The notes under the pieces were generated by a model. It made no database searches. It saw only the letters and a program-made list of their open reading frames with translations, and was not told the origin of the DNA. Shown here in pieces: positions 2,253-26,047 of a stretch of DNA of 32,000 bases. Location: contig OW818675.1 of the NCBI GenBank assembly GCA_942493095.1, positions 1,290,001-1,322,000 of the forward strand. The letters are read 5' to 3'. Every line of letters begins with the position of its first letter. The first letter of the stretch is position 1. A program made the translations under genes and the position numbers. Source of the DNA: Candidatus Electronema halotolerans (GTDB lineage Bacteria; Desulfobacterota; Desulfobulbia; Desulfobulbales; Desulfobulbaceae).

Positions 2253-3425
2253 ATGAATTTGATAATTTATCTACAGCACCCCTTAATCCTGACCGGAATT
2301 GGGCTGTTTTTTGCAGCATTGGCAGTCAAGGTGATATTCCTCGGCAAGGACAAGTCTTCTGGAACCGCAAGGAAGGCTATGCATCTTCTGCTGGTGCTTG
2401 CTATGCTGGCAACAGTGAGCGGTGCTCTCCTCAGTTGGCAAGGTGCTTCAATAGATGCCGTCGTTGAAATTTCGCCCACAGCAGTAATGAAGCCTGCCCA
2501 AACTGCCCAGCAAGCCTTTGAGAGCGGTCTGGAAGCTGAAAAGAAAATTGATTACAAGAACGCTTTGCTTCACTACAGCAAGGCACTGGAACTGGTGCCA
2601 GACAAACCGGAATATTTGCTTGCTGCGGGAAGGACAGATAGAAAGTTCGGCAAGTTTATCCAAGCGCAGGATTGGTTGGAGCGGCTCTTGCAACTGCGCG
2701 AGGCAGAAGGAAAGGATACTGCTGCCTTTGCTGAAGCGCAGAACGAATTGGCTCAACTCTATTATGATCAGGGCAAATATGCCAAAGCAGAATCTCTTTA
2801 TCAAAGTTCCTTGGAAATCAGAAAGGTGGTGTTTGGTGACGATGCTCCTGAAGTCGCGCAAAGCTTGAACAATCTCGCAGCAGCGTATCGTGAGCAGGGA
2901 AAATACGAGGCAGCAGAATCATTATGCGAACGCGCTTTGGCAATCCAAGAGCAGACTCTTGGTAAGGAAAATCCAGCAGTAGCTGAAACGCTCAACAATT
3001 TGGCCCTGCTGTATCGAGTGCAAAGAAAATATAAGGAAGCGGAACCGCTGCATCAGCGCGCTCTGAAAATCAGAGAGCAGACTTTTGGCAAGGATTATCC
3101 GGCAGTAGCTGAAACCCTTAACAATCTTGGTTCGCTGTATTATCAGCAAGGACGCTATAACGAGGCGGAACCGCTGTATCAGCGCGCTCTGAAAATCAGG
3201 GAGCAATTCCTTGGGAAAGAGCATCCGGCTGTGGCTGAAATCCTTAGCAATCTTGCCTTGATCTACAAAGCGCAAAGAAAATACACAGAGGCAGAGTCCC
3301 TGTATCAGCGCAGCATAGCTATTCTCACAGCAGCCTTCCCTGATGGGCATCTCAATATTACCCGCTATCAGGCAAATTACGATGAACTGAAGCGTAAGAT
3401 GGCTGAACAAGAACAGCAGCAGTAA
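2253..3425 (+). CDS. Membrane-anchored tetratricopeptide-repeat protein (TPR_12 / kinesin-light-chain-type repeats)
   Basis: A GGAGGAG RBS lies upstream of the ATG. The N-terminus has two hydrophobic segments. About six 42-aa repeats follow, of the form AxxLNNLAxLYxxQGKYxEAEPLYQRALKIREQxLGKxHPxVA. Confidence 0.85.
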   Translation: MNLIIYLQHPLILTGIGLFFAALAVKVIFLGKDKSSGTARKAMHLLLVLAMLATVSGALLSWQGASIDAVVEISPTAVMKPAQTAQQAFESGLEAEKKIDYKNALLHYSKALELVPDKPEYLLAAGRTDRKFGKFIQAQDWLERLLQLREAEGKDTAAFAEAQNELAQLYYDQGKYAKAESLYQSSLEIRKVVFGDDAPEVAQSLNNLAAAYREQGKYEAAESLCERALAIQEQTLGKENPAVAETLNNLALLYRVQRKYKEAEPLHQRALKIREQTFGKDYPAVAETLNNLGSLYYQQGRYNEAEPLYQRALKIREQFLGKEHPAVAEILSNLALIYKAQRKYTEAESLYQRSIAILTAAFPDGHLNITRYQANYDELKRKMAEQEQQQ

Positions 3426-4052: not shown

Positions 4053-6680
4053 ATGCAGGCGGAGAAAATCATCGGCTTTTCCCTGAAAAAGCCCAAGGCG
4101 GTGATCGCGGCCATGCTTGCGGCCACTTTGATCATCGGGGCCTTCATTGTCCGGGTCCACGTTGACACAGACCCGGAAAACATGCTCTCTGAGGACGAGC
4201 ATGTCCGCGTTTTTCATGCCCAGACCAAAAAGGAATTTGGTCTGCACGACGTGGTGGTGCTGGGCGTGGTCAACGAGGAGAACCCGGACGGTGTGTTCAA
4301 CCCGGCAACCCTGAAAAAGGTTCATGCCCTGAGCAAGTTCGCAGGCACCTTGGCTGACCCGGACGACCCGACCCGGAAAGTGGTGGCGCGGGACATCATT
4401 GCCCCGGACAATGTGGACAACATTATTCAGGCCGGGCTGGGGCAGGTGCGCTTTGAGTGGCTGATGCAGGAACCGCCGACCACCCGTGAAGGTGCCCTGA
4501 AAGTCCGGGATGCGGCCTTGGATAATCCGCTCCTCAAAGGGACAATGGTTTCTGAGGACGGCAAAGCCTTGGCCATTTATCTGCCCATCACCAAGAAGGA
4601 TTTCGCCCATGCCACTGCCGAGCGGCTGCGGGAGAAAATCCAGGAGCTGGGGCCTGCGAACGGTGACGAGTTCCATATCACCGGCCTGCCTGTGGCGGAA
4701 GACACCTTTGGCAAGGAGATGTTTGTCCAGATGGCGATTTCCGCGCCTATGGCCATGCTGATGATCTTCCTGCTCATGTACTATTTCTTCCGCAATTTGC
4801 AGCTCATCATTGCGCCGATGATCTTGGCGGGCTGCGCTGTGGTCATCACGATGGGGCTGCTGATCGGCACCGGCCACACCCTGCACATCATGAGTTCGAT
4901 GATTCCGATCTTCATCATGCCGATTGCAGTGGTCGATTCGGTGCATATTCTCTCGGAATTCTTTGACCTCTACCAGAAAAAGAAGAACCGGCGCGAGACC
5001 TTGATCTATGTGATGGGCGACCTGTTCTGGCCCATGCTCTTCACCTCGCTGACCTCTTCAGTCGGCTTCATCTCCCTGGCATGGACACCGATTCCGCCGG
5101 TGCGGGCCTTTGGCATTTTTGTCGGCATCGGCATCTTGCTGGCTTGGGTGATGACCATCCTCTTCATCCCAGCCTATGTCATGCTCATCCCGGAGAAAAA
5201 GCTGGAGAGCTTTGGCGCGTCCGCTGATCATGCGGATCACAAAAATTCGCCGCTCAACCGGCATCTGCGCTGGGTCGGCAAAACTTCGATCAGCAAGCCG
5301 TGGGTAGTGATCGGCGTGAACCTTGGCATCATGTTCATCGGCGTGATCGGCATGTTCCTGATTCAGGTCAATGACAACCCGGTCAAATGGTTCAAGAAGA
5401 CGCACGAGGTGCGGGTGGCGGACAAAGTTTTGAATCGGCATTTCGGCGGCACATACGAAGCCTATCTGGTGCTGTCCGGCAATGCCAAGGAGCTGACTGC
5501 GCCTGAGACTGTCGCTTTGCTGGAAAAAGAAGTACAATCAATCCCAAGCGCCAACCCGGCCCTGCAAGAGACTGCGCTGAACAGCATCAAGGCCGAAGCT
5601 GAGGGCCTGCAAACCGGCACGGAATTGTTGGACAGCCTGAATCAGGCATGGAACAGTCAGTTGGACAATGTGGCGGCGGATGACGATGCAGGCTATGAGT
5701 TCTGGACTGCGGCAATCAACACGATTGGCAAAGTGGGCGCCAGCAAGGAAGTCTTCAAACGGCCTGAGCTGCTGCGCTGGATTGCTGATTTTCAGGCGCA
5801 TATAGCCAAGCAGGGCGATGTGGGCAAGTCGAACAGCATCAGCGACGTGGTCAAGAAGGTGCATCAGGAGCTGTACGAGGGCAATCCGCAGCATTTCACC
5901 ATCCCGGACACAGTCAATGCAGTGGCGGAAACCCTGATTTCCTTTCAGAACAGTCACAAGCCGGATGATCTCTGGCATTTGGTCACGCCAGACTACACCA
6001 AGGCCAATCTCTGGATTCAGCTACGCAGCGGCGACAACAAGGACATGGAGCGGGTGGTTGAGGATGTGGAGCAGTATTTTGCCAGCAATCCGCCGCCGGT
6101 GAAACTGACGCACGAATGGGCGGGGCTGACCTATATCAATGTGGTCTGGCAGAACAAGATGGTTGTCGGCATGATGGAGTCTTTCCTGTCCAGTTTTGTG
6201 CTGGTCTTCCTGATGATGGCCTTCCTGTTCCGCTCGCCGACTTGGGGCCTGCTGGCGATGATTCCGTTGACTTTCACCATTGGTTTCATCTATGGTTTTA
6301 TTGGTCTGATCGGCAAGGATTACGACATGCCAGTGGCGGTGCTCTCCTCGCTGGCCTTGGGCTTGGCGGTTGACTTTGCCATTCATTTCCTCCAGCGCAC
6401 CCGGATGACAATGGCCAAGACTGGCGACTGGAACGCGACGATCACGGATATGTTTGACGAGCCAGCGCGGGCGATTTTCCGCAATATCATTGTGATTGCG
6501 GTGGGATTCACGCCGCTGCTGCTCGCGCCGCTGGTCCCGTATCAGACAGTGGGCGTGTTCTTGGCCACGATCATGTTCTACTCCGGCCTTGCGACCCTGT
6601 GGATTCTTCCTGCATTGCTGACGGTGATGAAGGGCTGGGTCTTTAAGCGGGAGTTGAAGGCGTTTGCGGAGAAGGGTTGA
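4053..6680 (+). CDS. RND-superfamily exporter, MMPL/COG1033 type (two 6-TM bundles with large periplasmic loops)
   Basis: 875 aa with an AAGGAGG RBS. It has two hydrophobic blocks (about aa 225-385 and 700-860) separated by soluble loops. This architecture is typical of MMPL/HpnN-like exporters. Confidence 0.9.
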   Translation: MQAEKIIGFSLKKPKAVIAAMLAATLIIGAFIVRVHVDTDPENMLSEDEHVRVFHAQTKKEFGLHDVVVLGVVNEENPDGVFNPATLKKVHALSKFAGTLADPDDPTRKVVARDIIAPDNVDNIIQAGLGQVRFEWLMQEPPTTREGALKVRDAALDNPLLKGTMVSEDGKALAIYLPITKKDFAHATAERLREKIQELGPANGDEFHITGLPVAEDTFGKEMFVQMAISAPMAMLMIFLLMYYFFRNLQLIIAPMILAGCAVVITMGLLIGTGHTLHIMSSMIPIFIMPIAVVDSVHILSEFFDLYQKKKNRRETLIYVMGDLFWPMLFTSLTSSVGFISLAWTPIPPVRAFGIFVGIGILLAWVMTILFIPAYVMLIPEKKLESFGASADHADHKNSPLNRHLRWVGKTSISKPWVVIGVNLGIMFIGVIGMFLIQVNDNPVKWFKKTHEVRVADKVLNRHFGGTYEAYLVLSGNAKELTAPETVALLEKEVQSIPSANPALQETALNSIKAEAEGLQTGTELLDSLNQAWNSQLDNVAADDDAGYEFWTAAINTIGKVGASKEVFKRPELLRWIADFQAHIAKQGDVGKSNSISDVVKKVHQELYEGNPQHFTIPDTVNAVAETLISFQNSHKPDDLWHLVTPDYTKANLWIQLRSGDNKDMERVVEDVEQYFASNPPPVKLTHEWAGLTYINVVWQNKMVVGMMESFLSSFVLVFLMMAFLFRSPTWGLLAMIPLTFTIGFIYGFIGLIGKDYDMPVAVLSSLALGLAVDFAIHFLQRTRMTMAKTGDWNATITDMFDEPARAIFRNIIVIAVGFTPLLLAPLVPYQTVGVFLATIMFYSGLATLWILPALLTVMKGWVFKRELKAFAEKG

Positions 6681-6774
6681 GAGGTGGACTTTCTCGGCAA
6701 CATTCCGGTAACGGGGTGTTGCCGGAGAGGAAACTCTTGCTCAATTAATACGTATTGCTGAAATTGAACATATT

Positions 6775-7229
6775 ATGATTCTTGAATTTTATAAATCACA
6801 TCTTTCTATCACCGAGTTAGCACAAACTGAACTTCCAGAGTTTACTGTGTTGACTGGAGTGAACGGCTCTGGAAAAAGTCATCTGCTATCTGCCATTGCA
6901 AGCCAGAGTATACGGATTCAAGGAATGGAGCAGCCAAGAATTGTCCTGTTTAACTATGCAACATTCAAGTTGGATAATGAACCTGTTTTAAACTCGCATC
7001 AACTTTTTTCTGAAAAAGAGGCAGCTTGGCAATTTTGTCAACAGGTTAAAAAAAACGCTTGGCGTGCTCAATTTGGTGAAGATTATGAGACTATTAGACA
7101 TGAATGTATTAATTCCAACTTGCCCTTCTGGGAAGTGACAGACTCAAGAATAGAACCATACAGGCAAAATCTTAAAAATTGGTACAGTCAGGCGAAACTA
7201 AAGAATACCCAGCAAGCTCAAGGCATCTA
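6775..7229 (+). pseudogene. N-terminal fragment of an ABC-type ATPase/Toprim (OLD-family-like) gene, interrupted by IS630
   Basis: Walker A is present as LTGVNGSGKSHLL. The frame is broken at the IS630 left end, and the track ORF 6775..7269 simply runs into IS sequence. It rejoins in frame with 8277..9504 when 7230-8276 is removed. Confidence 0.8.
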
Positions 7230-8274
7230 TAGCGGTTTCGTATTGAACAGATATCAAACCCAGCAATGACGGAAAAACGATTTGATTGATTTTGACTTAA
7301 CCGTTTTCAGAGATATATCATAAGCTTCCATCAGCTCACGCTCTGTTCTCGGCTTCAATTTTCTTATAGTGTTTTTCATTACTGACCAGCAGTATTCAAT
7401 AGGGTTCAGTTCAGGACGATAAGGAGGGAGGAAAATGATCTTCGCTCCTGTACTTCTGATCAAAGCGAGAGCTTCTTTGTTTTTATGAGGACTGGCATTG
7501 TCAAGAACGACTGTCTTGCTGCTGTCAAGATATTTCAAAAGATAATTTTTTATATAGAAATAAAAGACATCTCCTGTCATGGTGCCTTTAAATTTCATGC
7601 ACTTCAATATTTTTCCAAACTTTACAGCTCCTATCATGCTTATTCTTTTCCCTTTACCTGAAGGTCTTTTTGAAAAAGCTCTTGTTCCTTTTCTTGATCT
7701 TGCAAATTTTCTCGACATGTTCAAACAGCATCCTGTCTCATCAATAAAGATGAAATTCTTTTTGTCAGCCTCGAGCAGGCCTGCAAGGTAATTAACTGTC
7801 TTTGCTATATTTTCCTCTTTATACGCCGCCGGATCGCGGAAAGTTTTTTTTTCCGGCTGATTTTCAGTCTGGCGAGAGTTTCGCACAGCGTGGAAGGTGC
7901 TATTTTTAAATTGAATTTCTCGTATAAGCGATCACACATCTCTTCAAGCGTAAGATCGTTCTCGTCATCAATCATGCTGGTCAGAAAAGGCATATGAACT
8001 TCCTTGATTTTCGGAGGATTTCCGCCTTTATGAGGCTTCGGCTCAAGCGTCCCCTCAGTCTTCCATCTTTTTACAAGACTTTGAACAAATTTATAGGAAA
8101 CGTCAAGCAAATCTGCAGTTCTTCTCAATGATTTCTGTTTTTCATAAACAGACAAGACTTTCTTTCTGAAATCAATAGAATAAATCATGGCAGACCTCCG
8201 TGTGTAAAAAAATGGAAAAAACAGACAAGTCAAGTTTAATCTTTTTCTGATAACCATACAACCTGAAACCGCTA
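7230..8274 (-). mobile_element. IS630/Tc1-mariner-family insertion sequence (1045 bp) flanked by a TA target duplication
   Basis: Terminal inverted repeats are TAGCGGTTTC (7230-7239) and GAAACCGCTA (8265-8274), extendable to about 26 bp with mismatches. TA lies at 7228-7229 and at 8275-8276. The element encodes a DDE transposase. Confidence 0.85.
7254..8188 (-). CDS. IS630-family DDE transposase in two overlapping frames (orfA 8188->7805, orfB 7886->7254) joined by a -1 shift at an A9 run
   Basis: A GGAGG RBS precedes the ATG at 8186-8188. The N-terminal HTH region reads MIYSIDFRKKVLSVYEKQKS.... The catalytic triad context is IFIDETG / VLDNASPH / PELNPIEYCW. The A9 tract (T9 on the + strand, 7844-7852) lies inside the frame-overlap window. 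Confidence 0.85.
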
Positions 8275-8276
8275 TA

Positions 8277-9504
8277 TGCAATGGCAAGAAAGCTGCCGTA
8301 TGGAATAGATGATATTGAGCATGATGATTTTTTTTCTCTGTATAAGCCATTCATTGTCAAGGACGATTTTTTACCGAGTCAACTTGGACGTGTTTTTTGG
8401 GATTACTATGTAACATATCAACAAAATCAGCTACACGAATACCAAAACGAAAAGTACAATAAGAATTATCCGGTTTTATCAGAAGACGAATTCATTAGGA
8501 AGCACGGTGAAAAACCTTGGGATATAGTTAACCTGATATTGGAAAAATTAAATACAGTAACATATAGGGTAAACTCACCAGAAGGTGAAGATATTTTTGG
8601 AAATTTCAAGCTAAAAATATACCATACCGAAAAGAAAGAACTTCAGATAGATTTCAGCAATCTTTCATCCGGCGAACAGGTGCTTATGGCCTTGGTCGCC
8701 TCTGTTTATAAAGCATCTGCCGACAATCTTTTTCCAGATGTATTGCTGCTTGACGAAGTGGACGCATCACTGCATCCGTCTATGATGAAAAATATGCTTG
8801 AAGTCATAGAGGATGTATTTCTTCGTCAGTCCGTCAAAGTCATTCTTGTCACACATTCTCCTACCACCATTGCCTTAGCACCGGAAGATTCTGTTCATAT
8901 TATGAATCCAAGCGGTGCCCAGCGAATTATCAAGACAACGAGACAGGAGGCTTTGGCCATCCTGACTCAAGGTTATGCTACTCTTGATGAAGGACTAAAG
9001 CTGTTTGATGAGATCGGCCATGAAAAACTGACCATTATCACAGAAGGCTATAATACTTCTTTTTTGCGTAAAGCTCTGGAACTTAATCGGATAAACGGGG
9101 TGAACATTTTGGATGACTTGGAATCCATCACTGGAGATTCTCAACTCAGAACATTGTTTGATTTCTTTACAAAAATACAGCATGATAACAAAGTGCTCTT
9201 TGTGTGGGACTGCGATGTTTGGCCTAAGTACAATAAACTCACCGAGTCTAATAACACCTATCCTTTTATCTTTGAACGGAATAACGAGAATAAACTGACA
9301 GAAAATGGTATCGAAAATCTATTTTCAGAAAGTCTATTCTCAGGCATGATCACATGTACAACATCAAGTCTTGGTAAAAAACGAGAAGCTTTTGATAGCA
9401 ACAGAAAGCGAGACTTTGAGAAACTCATTATGGAGCATAACGATCCTGAAGATTTCAAGCTGTTCGCTCCGTTTGTAACGAAGGTTCAGGAGCTTATTTC
9501 ATAA
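8277..9504 (+). pseudogene. C-terminal fragment of the same ABC-type ATPase/Toprim gene
   Basis: It carries an ABC-signature-like LSSGEQ, Walker B LLLDEVDASLHP and H-loop VILVTHSP. A Toprim/DUF4435-like module follows, with TIITEGYN (Glu) and VLFVWDCDV (DxD). Confidence 0.8.
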
Positions 9505-9597
9505 CAGAAGCAGCTTCCCAACCTTGTAAGTTGGGACAAGGAACGTCCCGATAAAACCGGAAGATGGATTCAGAGGGACAACTTACGGGACAAACGC

Positions 9598-9975
9598 ACG
9601 GCCCAATTCAACAGACGAACCGCAGCCTCCTTGAACCGCAGCTCTCCGTTCGTTGCAAGAACGTCTTCGCTTAAAAAGAGGAGCAGCCCTTTCTTGAAAA
9701 GCAGTCGTGAGTTTTTAAAGAGCACCTTCCAGCTTTTTAAGTTGGGCCGTCTTCTCAAGAGGTGGACAAGCCCTCTTTAAAAGGGGAGAGATCAACTTTA
9801 CAAAAGAAGCAGTCCGTTCGTTGAGAGCAGCCTTCCTCTTTTTAAGAGAGGAAGCGCGTTCGTTAAGAGGAGCTGTCCGAGAAAGAAATGCAACTCTCGT
9901 TTCAAAAAAAGAACAGTCCCTTTTTTCGAGAGGACTTGAGCGCGCAAAAGAAGGAAGCAGCGCAGACAAAAAAGA
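9598..9975. repeat. About 18 tandem degenerate 21-bp repeats with a T-tract/A-tract pseudo-palindromic core
   Basis: I aligned the region by hand in 21-nt rows from 9598. Column 1 is A in 16/18 rows, column 20 is G in 17/18 rows, columns 10-14 are T-rich and columns 15-19 are A-rich. TTCGTT recurs at 9649, 9817 and 9859, spacings of 168 and 42 nt (8x21 and 2x21). Confidence 0.85.
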
Positions 9976-9982
9976 GAATTAA

Positions 9983-10229
9983 ATGAAATGCGCAATCTGT
10001 GTCGGCGGAAGAACTGAAAAAAAACTTTTCAACCGTGCTGCTGGAAAAAGATGAAATGATATTGCTTTTTAAGCAGGTTCCTTCAGAGATTTGTGAGAAT
10101 TGCGGAGAAGAATATATTTCATCTGAAGTGAACAGAATGCTGCTCCGCCATGCAAGAGAAGAGCTGAATCGAAATGTCTCTCTTGAGATGCTGAATTTCT
10201 CTCCCAGAGAATCTATGAAATCAGCTTGA
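9983..10229 (+). pseudogene. YgiT-type zinc-ribbon (MqsA N-terminal-like) antitoxin-like gene, frameshifted in an A8 tract
   Basis: The ATG at 9983 gives MKCAICVGGRTEKK in frame 2. The rest (NFSTVLLEKDEMILLFKQVPSEICENCGEEY...) is in frame 3. The switch point is the A8 run at 10017-10024. Removing one A gives an 81-aa CxxC...CxxC protein. Confidence 0.6.
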
Positions 10230-10257
10230 CAGAATATAGGGAAATTTTCGTGATGCT

Positions 10258-10509
10258 ATGAACTGCCCGAAAGTGCGCTCAGTCAAGGCGGCTGACAATC
10301 ACATCCTGATCGTTGAGTTTGATAATAACAAAAAGAGACAGTATGACGTAAGTCTGTTGCTGGACAAGGAGATGTTTGCGCCATTAAAAAATACCGCTCT
10401 GTTCAAGGCCGTCCGAGTGGAGCAGGGAGGCTGGGCTGTTGCTTGGAATGATGACATCGACCTCAGCGAATTTGAGCTGTGGAGCAAAGGAAAAGAAGTA
10501 GTCTGCTGA
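10258..10509 (+). CDS. DUF2442-domain protein
   Basis: The 83-aa sequence VKAADNHILIVEFDNNKKRQYDVSLLLDKEMFAPLKNTALFKAVRVEQGGWAVAWNDDIDLSEFELW fits the DUF2442 pattern. Confidence 0.75.
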   Translation: MNCPKVRSVKAADNHILIVEFDNNKKRQYDVSLLLDKEMFAPLKNTALFKAVRVEQGGWAVAWNDDIDLSEFELWSKGKEVVC

Positions 10510-10724
10510 ACAGATTAAAGGCCATGACATGTTTTGAAGATTTGACCGGCTTTCAGGAAACAGGAGCAGAATAGGTTCGCCGGAATTTTATTGTCGAAGA
10601 AACAAAGCTGATCTTCAAAGCACGATTGACAGTTATCTTTATCCGTTTAAAGACGGAAGAAAGATTGTCAGTATTTTGAAATCGTTTATTGACTACAGCA
10701 AATAGCTTTAGCAAAGAGGTGATC

Positions 10725-10958
10725 ATGGCACTTAATCAAGAAGTGAAAAATCTTTCCTGCACAGGTTCAGTCTTGAGCAATGTGCAGATGGAGCTTATCA
10801 AGTTGTATGCAACAAACTTGAATAACAATGAGCTGATGGAGCTGAAAAGCATCTTGGCTGATCATTTCAGTCGAAAAGCAATTGATGAAGCTGACAAAAT
10901 ATGGATGCAGAAGGATATGTCAACACAGACAATGGACGACTGGCTGAATGAAGAATAA
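10725..10958 (+). CDS. Putative antitoxin partner of the downstream PIN toxin
   Basis: This 77-aa ORF has an AGAGG RBS before the ATG at 10725. It overlaps the PIN gene start by 11 nt. The family was not recognised. Confidence 0.55.
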   Translation: MALNQEVKNLSCTGSVLSNVQMELIKLYATNLNNNELMELKSILADHFSRKAIDEADKIWMQKDMSTQTMDDWLNEE

Positions 10959-11370
10959 GCTGCGCCTTGTCATTGACACAAATGTGCTGCTGGTCTCAAT
11001 ATCCAGCAAATCACAGTATCATTGGCTGTTTCAGGCTTTGCTGAATCAGGAGTTTGAACTGGCCTTCACAACGGAAATACTCGAAGAATACGAAGAGATT
11101 ATTGCATCAAAATACTCTGTTTCTGTTGCTCGCAACGTTATACGGACGATACTGCTGCTTCCGAATGCAATCAGAACAGTTGTTTACTACAATTGGAATC
11201 TGATTTCCATCGATGAAGATGACAACAAATTTTCAGACTGCGCTGTGTCCGCAAATGCGCATGCGATAGTCACGCACGACAGACACTTTGATATGCTGAA
11301 GGATATTTCGTTCCCAACTGTGAACGTGGTTACGATCCATGAATTGAAAAAACTGTTGGACAAGGATTGA
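10948..11370 (+). CDS. PIN-domain ribonuclease toxin (TIGR00305-like PIN family)
   Basis: The N-terminal LVIDTNVLLVSISS supplies the first acidic PIN residue, and ILEEYEEI and VTHDRHF motifs follow. The 140-aa size and the overlap with the upstream small ORF also fit. Confidence 0.85.
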   Translation: MKNKLRLVIDTNVLLVSISSKSQYHWLFQALLNQEFELAFTTEILEEYEEIIASKYSVSVARNVIRTILLLPNAIRTVVYYNWNLISIDEDDNKFSDCAVSANAHAIVTHDRHFDMLKDISFPTVNVVTIHELKKLLDKD

Positions 11371-11415
11371 TCAACACTCATTTCCTTATTATCAAAACAA
11401 AAGGAGCATATTGTC

Positions 11416-12204
11416 ATGAAGAAAAAAACAATGCTGTTCGGTCTGCTGGCCATGCTGGTTTCCACTTCGGCCTTTGCCGCTGATCCCAGCGTGGATGAAA
11501 TCGTCAGCAAAGCCAACTTGGCAGCCTATTATGGCGGCGATGACGGCAGGGCTGAGGTCAATATGACGATCAAGGACAGCCAAGGACGGGAGCGGACGCG
11601 GGAATTCATCATCCTGCGCAAGGACAAGGAGGACGGCGGCCAGCAATTCTTCTATGTCTATTTTAAGAAGCCCAGCGATGTCAGCAAAATGGTCTTCATG
11701 GTCCATAAATACACGGACAAGGACGATGACCGCTGGATGTATCTGCCTGCCTTGGACTTGGTCAAGCGGATTGCCGCCTCAGACAAGCGCACCTCCTTTG
11801 TTGGCAGCAATTTCATGTACGAGGATGTATCTGGCCGGAATCTGAACGAGGACACGCATGAGCTGGTGAAAAGCGATGGCAAGTATTATGTGGTCAAAAA
11901 CACGCCGAAAAAGCCGGGCGAGGTCGAGTTCTCTTCCTATACTGTGGAGATCGACAAAAAGACCTTCCTGCCGGTGAAAGCGGTTTATCTGGACAAGAAC
12001 GGCAAGGAATACCGGATTGTCGAGGCCGTGAAAACAGCCGTGGTTGACGGCATTCCGACTGTCACCGAATCCAAGGTCACGGACATCGCCGCAGGCAGCT
12101 CCACCGTGTCCAAGTTCACCAATATCAAGTACAATATTGGCTTGCAGGAAGACATTTTCACAGAACGCTACCTGCGCCGCCCGCCCCGCGAAGTGCGGCG
12201 GTGA
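11416..12204 (+). CDS. LolA-like outer-membrane lipoprotein-sorting family protein (secreted)
   Basis: A signal peptide MKKKTMLFGLLAMLVSTSAFA is present. The motif DRWMYLPALDLVKRIAASDKRTSFVGSNFMYEDV is characteristic of the LolA_like / DUF1329-type family. An AAAAGGAG RBS precedes the start. Confidence 0.85.
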   Translation: MKKKTMLFGLLAMLVSTSAFAADPSVDEIVSKANLAAYYGGDDGRAEVNMTIKDSQGRERTREFIILRKDKEDGGQQFFYVYFKKPSDVSKMVFMVHKYTDKDDDRWMYLPALDLVKRIAASDKRTSFVGSNFMYEDVSGRNLNEDTHELVKSDGKYYVVKNTPKKPGEVEFSSYTVEIDKKTFLPVKAVYLDKNGKEYRIVEAVKTAVVDGIPTVTESKVTDIAAGSSTVSKFTNIKYNIGLQEDIFTERYLRRPPREVRR

Positions 12205-25181: not shown

Positions 25182-25298
25182 CGAAGCTGTCATGATACGT
25201 ATAACGAATCTGTCATTATAGGTGTCATGACTTTGTCGTTATAGGTATAACGAAGCTGTCGTGATACCTATCATGAATTTGCCGTGATATGTATCATG
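25182..25298. repeat. Five 23-bp tandem units, each containing a 16-bp imperfect palindrome CRTKATA-NN-TATMAYG
   Basis: The palindromes start at 25191, 25214, 25237, 25260 and 25283, exactly 23 bp apart. Unit 3, CGTTATA-GG-TATAACG, is a perfect 7-2-7 dyad. The spacers are AAKCTGT-like. Confidence 0.9.
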
Positions 25299-25372
25299 AC
25301 GCAAAAAGGCTTGGCATGTTTGACGCGGGCAGATTGGAGCAGAGAGCAGACGGACAGAGCATCTGAGTACAC

Positions 25373-26047
25373 ATGAATACAGTCATTGTCATCCCAGTTT
25401 ATAACGAGGCCAAGGTCATCGGCGAGGTGATTGAGGGCGTGCGGGCGCAGGGCTTTGAGCATGTTGTGGTCGTCGATGACGGCAGCAGGGATGACAGCTT
25501 TGTGGTCGCATCCGCTCACGATGCCCTGACTCTGCGGCTGAAGATCAACCGGGGCAAGGGCGCGGCAGTGAAGACCGGCATCATGGCCGCCAATCTTCTT
25601 GATGCGGATGTTGTCGTGACTATGGACGGCGACGGACAGCACGATCCGGCGGATATCCGTCCCCTGATCACCCCGATTCTGGCAGGCCGGAGCGATGTGG
25701 TGCTTGGCTCGCGCCTGCTCAAACGGGAGGCGATGCCCTTCAAGAAGGTCATTGCCAACCGCATCGGCAATGTGCTGACGTGGCTTTTCTACGGCCTGCT
25801 GGTCTCAGACAGTCAGTCCGGCTTCCGGGCCTATTCTCGTTACGCCGCCTTGATCATTGACACTAAAGCGGATAAATACGAATATGACAGCAAAGTCATC
25901 CGGGAGATCAAGAACAACCGGCTGCGCTTCACCGAAGTGCCGGTGCATACCCGCTACACCGAATACGCGAGCACAAAAAAGACCAAGCAGGGCTTGATCA
26001 ACGGGCTGATCACCCTGTACCGGATGATCTGGAAGCTGATTGCCTGA
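25373..26047 (+). CDS. Family 2 glycosyltransferase (polyprenyl-phosphate sugar transferase, GtrB/DPM1-like)
   Basis: The sequence VIVIPVYNEAKVIGEVI...VVVVDDGSRD...TMDGDGQHDP shows the GT-A fold DxD-type motifs. Size is 224 aa. Confidence 0.88.
   Translation: MNTVIVIPVYNEAKVIGEVIEGVRAQGFEHVVVVDDGSRDDSFVVASAHDALTLRLKINRGKGAAVKTGIMAANLLDADVVVTMDGDGQHDPADIRPLITPILAGRSDVVLGSRLLKREAMPFKKVIANRIGNVLTWLFYGLLVSDSQSGFRAYSRYAALIIDTKADKYEYDSKVIREIKNNRLRFTEVPVHTRYTEYASTKKTKQGLINGLITLYRMIWKLIA

Follow-up and report, generated by a model that had tools for sequence, protein, structure and literature searches.

In this study, we describe a periodic element in a 32,000-nucleotide stretch (hereafter, the window) of the genome of Candidatus Electronema halotolerans (contig OW818675.1, forward-strand positions 1,290,001 to 1,322,000; coordinates below are those of the window). 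The element, whose core occupies 9598..9954 on the + strand, is a selectively maintained, non-coding, strand-asymmetric tandem array of 17 in-phase 21-base units, and it belongs to the locus of an MMPL/RND-type exporter gene in cable bacteria rather than to the ATPase gene found directly upstream of it in the window. The first-pass annotation of this DNA had taken it for a genuine, undescribed periodic element without an intact open reading frame (ORF), and the periodicity, the orthologues and the lack of an open frame all bear this out. Four roles had been suggested there, namely a nucleoprotein scaffold of iteron or centromere type, intrinsically curved DNA, a multi-hairpin RNA, and the decayed remnant of a heptad-repeat gene; the first stands as a possibility, the other three fail the tests described below, and the supposed link to the ATPase gene and its defence islet is incidental. 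Our conclusion is that the array is probably functional, as a non-coding protein-binding array on RNA or DNA.

Arranged in rows of 21 bases starting at 9598, the sequence has A in column 1 in 16 of 18 rows and G in column 20 in 17 of 18, with a T-rich block followed by an A-rich block in each row, as had been reported. The periodicity is real: self-identity amounts to 0.43-0.49 at lags of 21, 42, 63, 84 and 105, against a maximum of 0.356 in 2000 shuffles (the largest value at any lag from 6 to 69). The array region gives the strongest period-21 signal of the whole window (0.456, compared with a window mean of 0.284, standard deviation 0.025), and the period is exactly 21.0 bp over 17 units, in a register unbroken by insertions or deletions. 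Autocorrelation, shuffles, column information, matrix scores and unit-by-unit orthologues together define the core given above. When a position weight matrix built from an orthologous array was used, 16 of the 17 units from 9598 to 9954 scored above the 99th percentile of the window, the weak unit being that at 9619; of the approximately 18 units originally counted, 17 thus form the in-phase core and the last one, at 9955-9975, does not score. Tandem Repeats Finder, to which the first-pass annotation had looked for confirmation, does not report the array even at a minimum score of 30, because its units are only ~45% alike.

The unit consensus is roughly A-S-N-N-N-Y-C-C-N-Y-T-Y-W-W-N-A-A-R-A-G-N, with ~12-14 bits of information per unit. 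Its core is asymmetric, running through T11, W14, A16, A17, R18, A19 and G20 to A1 of the next unit, which gives a strand-asymmetric conserved motif, T..W.AARAG.A, whose purine side is better conserved than its pyrimidine side. The most informative columns (A1, A16, A17 and G20) have dyad partners that are weak or non-complementary. In this regard, the units cannot be called pseudo-palindromic, as they first were: no dyad axis in the window pairs better than column-shuffled controls, and the palindromic look follows from a column composition in which a T-tract precedes an A-tract. Among the 40 possible dyad axes of the window array, none shows significant within-unit covariation, and the best axis in the orthologous array of Electrothrix sp. 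AW1 (p 0.004) is lost on multiple testing. A multi-hairpin RNA is equally at odds with the data, with folding that does not surpass that of shuffled sequence (z-scores of -1.3 and -2.2 for the two strands), no covariation, and nothing relevant in Rfam at E<=1. As for intrinsic curvature, a wedge model places the end-to-end ratio of the array at 0.95-0.99, between the 17th and 93rd percentiles of the window, and the same model treats control sequences as expected (A6N4 0.40, A4T4N2 0.50, T4A4N2 1.00). The array has one T-then-A block per 21 bp instead of A-tracts every ~10.5 bp, and the order of T-tract then A-tract is reportedly (Hagerman 1986) the non-bent arrangement.

The closest relatives of the ATPase and of the MMPL gene are found in Candidatus Electrothrix and Electronema, the cable bacteria, and two metagenome contigs are identical or nearly so to the window. 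Orthologous arrays of 10-24 units are present at the same locus, downstream of the MMPL gene, in seven other cable-bacterial genomes. In four of these the array follows an orthologous ATPase gene and can be aligned unit by unit: Ca. Electronema sp. KV (L003/L007), Electrothrix sp. AW1 (L005), E. gigas AU1_5 (L008), and a more distant metagenome contig (L026) in which it is shorter and partly out of register. The remaining three were reached through a search with the MMPL protein, after which four more cable-bacterial loci were retrieved, and they have no ATPase gene. Electronema sp. GCA_011391865.1 (L148) has the MMPL gene, the array, a 201-residue gene and a TP_0789-like gene, in that order; Electronema sp. 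V4 (L149) has a VapBC-like pair in place of the 201-residue gene; and in Ca. Electronema aureum (L150/L151) the order is MMPL gene, an unrelated 301-residue gene, array, 199-residue gene, and TP_0789-like gene. In E. aureum the array keeps perfect register. It is orthologous to that of the window unit by unit, and the same unit-by-unit orthology holds for KV, AW1 and E. gigas. It is because the array occurs without the ATPase in these three genomes that we assign it to the MMPL locus. The MMPL gene (4053..6680, + strand in the window) is the only neighbour common to all eight array-bearing loci and always lies on the same strand as the array, which has been retained with five different downstream neighbours.

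Before these MMPL orthologues with an array but no ATPase were found, the idea that the array travels with the ATPase had fitted the first five loci; they overturned it. Copies of the ATPase gene in other genomic contexts (L006, L023-L025 and L147) and 13 ATPase loci from other, non-cable phyla (L009-L021) have no array, and neither does Electrothrix sp. YB6 (L152), in which the MMPL gene is present. The placement in a defence and toxin-antitoxin islet, which had made the element seem worth a look, is therefore incidental, since elsewhere the array adjoins the MMPL gene with no ATPase and with different neighbours. The array itself predates the ATPase and toxin-antitoxin genes that now flank it.

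Conservation extends a little beyond the periodic core. Directly 5' of it, at 9566..9597 on the + strand, alignments reveal a conserved non-periodic leader (CAGAGGGACAACTTACGGGACAAACGC...), common to the orthologous arrays examined, including that of V4, which is without the ATPase, and truncated in E. aureum; RNAalifold gives it -8.5 kcal/mol with a positive covariation term, and the leader marks where the ATPase insertion ends on its right-hand side. The spacer from the ATPase stop codon to the leader (9505..9565, + strand) can be aligned only among ATPase-carrying genomes and probably, for this reason, arrived as part of the ATPase cassette; it has neither a conserved structure nor a terminator. 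At the other end, alignments of the orthologous arrays define a 3' terminal motif, ACTTGAGCGCGCAAAAGAAGGAAGCAG (9934..9960, + strand), whose core TTGAGCGC is kept in six of the eight orthologous arrays.

Purifying selection acts on the array. It is 81% identical over 353 nt when the window is compared with E. aureum, where the fourfold-degenerate sites of the MMPL gene reach 48% identity; for the window and AW1 the corresponding values are 79% and 55%. In these two comparisons, the array equals the protein encoded by the neighbouring core gene in its degree of conservation. Where orthologues differ, the substitutions concentrate in columns of low information (Spearman -0.60, p 0.004). A residues are changed in 20% of cases in conserved columns and in 52% in variable ones (p 0.002), a contrast that argues against merely base-specific mutation. 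Length changes are constrained as well. Over about 350-410 aligned bases, according to the stretch used, the window and AW1 differ by internal gaps of 105 and 21 nt only, and the window and E. aureum by gaps of 21 and 3 nt in 353 aligned bases, while the 84-nt spacer between the MMPL and ATPase genes has accumulated four small gaps at 77% identity, the same divergence as that of the array. Among the well-phased arrays (window, AW1, E. gigas and E. aureum), the number of units varies by whole units. In the lineage of L026, L148 and V4, the register has slipped by insertions or deletions of 1-2 nt, and the array is 89-93% identical against 73-86% at fourfold sites. The comparison of AW1 with E. 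gigas was left out of this measurement because the region is a recombination mosaic.

A period of 21 bases is also one of seven codons, and one alternative to a non-coding element is relic or cryptic coding, that is, a heptad region reading [S/T]-S-P-F-[L/V]-K-[R/S] in + frame 1, now a pseudogene or recoded. In the window this frame, which is that of the upstream ATPase gene, has only two stops, at 9778 and 9937 as first reported, and the ATPase C-terminus (FAPFV) lies in the same frame. The claim that the - strand needs three frames was mistaken, as a single - frame, codon for codon opposite + frame 1, crosses the array with one stop. Third positions are the least conserved in the window (information 0.39, compared with 0.76 and 0.87), they showed the fastest change among the first four orthologues compared, and the gaps between well-phased orthologues are all multiples of 3. 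Against these points, not one of the eight orthologues has an open frame across the array. Six orthologues translated from their stop codons have 2-10 stops in frame 1, a TAA in this frame is common to three lineages, and there is no conserved start codon across the array orthologues. The first stop of the window (9778) and the frame-1 stops of AW1 and E. gigas sit at the junction of T-tract and A-tract (TTT TAA AAA), which suggests a motif acting at the nucleotide level. At heptad position 7, Arg and Ser swap freely because the codons are AGA, AGG, AGC and AGT, and the host core genes encode Arg by CGN (68 to 4). The three-base periodicity of conservation is marginal (permutation p 0.059) and was reshaped once E. 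aureum was added, with phase 2 then the most conserved and phases 1 and 3 alike.

Nor does the heptad reading lead to a protein family. A word-indexed search of 5.8 billion protein clusters with the + frame heptads returned no homologue, and an exhaustive HMMER search of 1.84 billion representatives gave only two weak singleton ORFs, from unrelated repeats. ATPase homologues lack the heptad tail. The idea that the array derives from a conserved gene that once partnered the ATPase was considered as well and rejected, as distant ATPase homologues have neither a conserved downstream gene nor such a tail. Above all, a pseudogene should drift like neutral sites, and the array, at 79-81% identity where fourfold sites are at 48-55%, is conserved far above them; it is thus not a pseudogene. 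Taken together, these observations make a relic or recoded gene very unlikely, and the decayed heptad-repeat gene of the first-pass annotation can be set aside.

Within the probable protein-binding function, we tentatively favour an RNA version, in which the array would serve as a platform for periodic protein binding within a co-directional transcript, although taken alone this version falls short of being probable. On this view, the transcript of the co-directional genes would include the array as a long untranslated spacer. Proteins would then meet, in every 21-nt unit, an unstructured pyrimidine/U tract and after it a purine A-R-N tract (AARAG.A), a combination of the kind recognised by single-strand RNA-binding proteins such as Hfq, which we regard as a candidate lead, and the bound protein might protect or regulate the spacer and the flanking cistrons. 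What leads us to favour RNA is the strand asymmetry, the constant orientation, the co-oriented insertions (except the IS630 transposase) and the lack of a terminator. In each of the eight loci the array and the MMPL gene point the same way, and no intrinsic terminator was found between the upstream gene and the array. Runs of at least three A-R-N triplets are enriched on the + strand only, with 25 triplets in the window where 15.3 are expected (p 0.036), and with p 0.002 in both KV (L003) and AW1 (L005).

Several points weigh against the RNA platform. No consistent promoter or terminator that would delimit an RNA was found in four genomes. The enrichment of A-R-N runs is modest, and it is the same signal as the marginal three-base periodicity of conservation (p 0.059). 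A strict register with whole-unit gaps is unneeded by linear RNA motifs and fits DNA helical phasing better. Furthermore, the scans for a second array covered the 32-kb window and the cable-bacterial loci, which leaves room for a dispersed family.

The register speaks for a DNA-level phased array, made of about 13-24 head-to-tail sites exactly two helical turns apart on which a protein would assemble cooperatively along one face of the duplex, its candidate binders being a nucleoid-associated protein, the ArsR-type helix-turn-helix regulator encoded upstream of the MMPL gene, or another factor. The period of exactly 21.0 bp and the changes by whole units, free of small insertions and deletions in the window, AW1, E. 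gigas and E. aureum, are as expected from such an arrangement, and ~12-14 bits per unit is what a protein site typically holds. Minor-groove readout is well served by T-tract/A-tract cores that have a central TpA step. The array is kept regardless of the genes that flank it on either side, and in all orthologous loci with a gene table of sufficient reach the MMPL gene is preceded by an HTH_5/ArsR-family gene. However, this gene is also present in Electrothrix YB6, which has no array, and no DNA-binding gene is specifically linked to the element. In the lineage of L026, L148 and V4 the register is broken by 1-2 nt and the array is nevertheless conserved above fourfold sites (89-93% against 73-86%). 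The wedge model predicts no intrinsic curvature, and the asymmetry of the motif makes a symmetric dimer unlikely. We consider the DNA version a close rival of the RNA one, and likewise short of probable.

The nucleoprotein scaffold suggested in the first-pass annotation stands only in this broad sense. Like the iterons and partition centromeres of plasmids (the 22-bp iterons of R6K and pPS10, sopC of F, and parC of R1 and pSK41), the array is made of contiguous head-to-tail units with a period of about two helical turns (~21 bp), its unit number and total length are of the same order, and its unit number shifts by whole units. Unlike them, it has units only ~45% alike (identity ~0.43-0.49) rather than highly similar repeats, it is chromosomal and lies at a conserved core locus, and no Rep, ParA/ParB/ParR or other cognate gene stands beside it in the eight loci. 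The neighbouring ATPase is of the SMC/Rad50-like ABC type and not a ParA-like centromere NTPase, and three of the genomes with an array do not have it. A strict iteron or centromere was therefore rejected, on the lack of a cognate binding-protein gene, the degenerate units and the chromosomal core locus.

RNA systems offer similarly partial parallels. As in the sponge RNAs CsrB, RsmY and RsmZ, an RNA of about 350-480 nt transcribed from the array would carry some 13-24 short purine-rich motifs; in contrast to them, GGA occurs in only ~8 of 18 units (column 21 is G in 7 of 18), there are no conserved hairpin loops, the spacing is strict where CsrB sites are irregular, and there is no found promoter or terminator and no Rfam match. 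The (A-R-N)n sites bound by the distal face of Hfq resemble the best columns of the array, A-A-R, A-G-N and A-S-N beside a U-rich tract on the + strand, but known Hfq sites are single or few per RNA, as opposed to ~20 phased units. The RNA antitoxins of type III toxin-antitoxin systems (ToxI, CptI and TenpI) are also tandem repeats beside defence or toxin genes. Their repeats, unlike those described here, are near-identical, 34-45 nt long and few, and precede a ToxN/AbiQ-type endoribonuclease gene with a terminator between; the array also occurs without neighbouring toxin genes, and its downstream genes vary, being type II antitoxin-like or other.

A further explanation is that the array belongs to a dispersed family like the repetitive extragenic palindromic (REP) elements, or is a recombination or integration hotspot element, and owes its conservation to genome-wide spread or to cassette capture. 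It shares with REP and the bacterial interspersed mosaic elements (BIME) of enterobacteria an intergenic position in a co-directional gene string and a pseudo-palindromic look, and foreign genes are found on both sides of it (the ATPase, the 301-residue gene, several toxin-antitoxin pairs, and the 199-201-residue genes). REP and BIME elements differ, however, in having stable covarying hairpins, in lacking a strict 21-base tandem register and in not being confined to one known locus. Neither a second copy within the 32-kb window nor a further period-21 array in the scanned cable-bacterial loci was found, and the units have no conserved hairpins. The insertion boundaries vary between events, which indicates that there is no site-specific target, and no recombinase is linked to the array. 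We regard this explanation as quite unlikely.

Beyond these loci, a three-unit degenerate pattern run on 214 kb of sequence matched all five array lineages included there and nothing else. In a metagenome collection it matched at least 120 loci, and none of the matches listed encoded the ATPase; the most periodic of those listed are unrelated minisatellites or coiled-coil coding repeats. Two matches, on unrelated metagenome contigs, resemble the array in design only, with a T-tract/A-tract core and a G+C-rich spacer: a degenerate 21-base array of ~15 units with all frames open (L127, 1396-1704), and a set of 5-6 almost identical units (CCCCTTTTTAAAAAAGACCAC) that directly follows a Bacteroidetes SusD-like gene (L103, about 11180-11330). 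This resemblance may be partly by construction, as both were selected by the search pattern. A literature search on cable-bacterial repeats, on Hfq or CsrA in Electrothrix, and on 21-bp repeats yielded nothing useful.

The ATPase gene (6775..9504, + strand) encodes a protein of ABC type, assigned to AAA_15/AAA_21 by Pfam/NCBIfam and SMC/Rad50-like in the head by its predicted structure. It had been annotated as a Toprim ATPase; the ABC-type ATPase assignment is upheld by Pfam/NCBIfam, in which Toprim is not detected. Invariant E-G and D-x-D motifs and PADLOC matches to ATPase-Toprim_I-B and AriAB are compatible with Toprim. A Toprim fold of the C-terminal domain was not confirmed by Pfam or NCBIfam, and a whole-protein fold search was dominated by the ATPase head. 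The predicted structure matches SMC/Rad50 heads, with retron-associated PtuA ATPases as the best PDB matches. An IS630-family element at about 7234-8271 interrupts the gene in the window, so that residues 1-156 are encoded by 6775-7233 and residues 154-563 by 8272-9501; the element carries DDE_3 and HTH_Tnp_IS630 ORFs on the - strand, apparently with a frameshift of its own. The G+C content of the gene (38-39%, against 53-61% in the flanking core genes) and its use of AGR codons for Arg, unlike the host, are consistent with horizontal acquisition. Distant ATPase homologues have no conserved downstream partner gene, and the ATPase gene is cargo between the MMPL gene and the array, not the partner of the latter.

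The ATPase gene itself has a composite history in Electrothrix. The copies of the closely related AW1 and E. gigas (L005 5001-6692 and L008 3998-5692) agree at every fourfold site in the first 380 codons and at only 58% of such sites in the last 185, and the C-terminal part of the AW1 gene has 90% nucleotide identity to an array-less paralogue of Electrothrix ATG2 (L006 1433-3121). This pattern looks like gene conversion or domain swapping that ended near the stop codon.

The insertion point of the ATPase gene lies between the array leader and a hairpin directly after the MMPL stop codon (6693..6727, + strand; CTCGGCAACA...TGTTGCCGGAG) that was recognised by alignment. The hairpin has counterparts at about 4910-4950 in L003 and about 4925-4965 in L005 and is kept via compensatory changes (GGCAAC/GTTGCC, GACGAC/GTTGTC, TATAAT/GTTATA), and it lacks a U-tail; it may stabilise the 3' end of the mRNA or act as an attenuator. 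Where the ATPase is missing, another GC-rich hairpin, different from this one, stands ~50 bases upstream of the array (L148/L149 sequence).

On the other side of the array, variable 3' cargo extends over 9984..11370 on the + strand and consists of a YgiT/MqsA-like zinc-ribbon gene, a DUF2442 gene, and a small antitoxin-like gene with a PIN gene. The zinc-ribbon gene (9984-10229) is frameshifted in the window, with the shift placed by inference in an A-run near 10016-10024, and it is intact (81 residues) at 1735-1980 of metagenome contig L001, which is 99.99% identical with a single 1-base gap; the frameshift is either a real recent event or an assembly error. In gene tables of the orthologous loci, a TP_0789-like (LolA-like) gene (11416..12204, + strand) is the first conserved gene beyond the insertions in Electronema-type genomes, and the MMPL locus also carries a TP_0789-like operon in most genomes examined. 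The interval between the MMPL and TP_0789-like genes (9505-11415 in the window, with equivalents in L005, L026 and L148-L151) is an insertion hotspot, holding, depending on the genome, the ATPase, the 301-residue gene, VapBC-like, MqsA-like/DUF2442 or Unstab_antitox/RelE-like genes, or the 199-201-residue genes. The inserted genes flank the array on either side and, except for the IS630 transposase, all lie on the + strand.

Other repeats occur elsewhere in the window. Five 23-base direct repeats (about GAATCTGTCGTGATACGTATCAT; or 46-base units) at 25183-25299 are intergenic, upstream of an ORF that begins at 25373, and resemble an iteron-like site or one bound by a regulator. A collagen-like G-X-Y repeat coding region, with a 9-base period within repeats of 99-315 bases, occupies 1-1525 and runs off the left end, and a tetratricopeptide-like repeat of 126 bases is found at 2948-3311.

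No cable bacterium has been brought into pure culture, and the non-coding part of these genomes is, to our knowledge, essentially unexplored. Here, an ORF-less element of about 350-500 bases is held by selection across two candidate genera and corresponds to none of the RNA families, iterons, centromeres or repeat classes described so far, although its general kind, a tandem protein-binding array on DNA or RNA, is one that we rate as known. A bolder proposal, which we hold to be rather unlikely, is that of a new, cable-specific autonomous periodic element, whose ~13-24 strand-asymmetric sites, set in a strict 21-base register (seven triplets, two helical turns), would nucleate a regular protein filament on RNA or DNA. 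If true, this element would be unrelated to iterons, centromeres, sponge RNAs and REP elements, and it would mark or organise a hotspot that captures defence and toxin-antitoxin cassettes on both sides; a still more extreme version would have the heptad frame decoded across its stop codons. The locus also illustrates that an apparent link to a defence gene can be an accident of insertion. The array marks a site of repeated insertion of defence and toxin-antitoxin genes, and it provides a concrete target for finding a new nucleic-acid-binding system.

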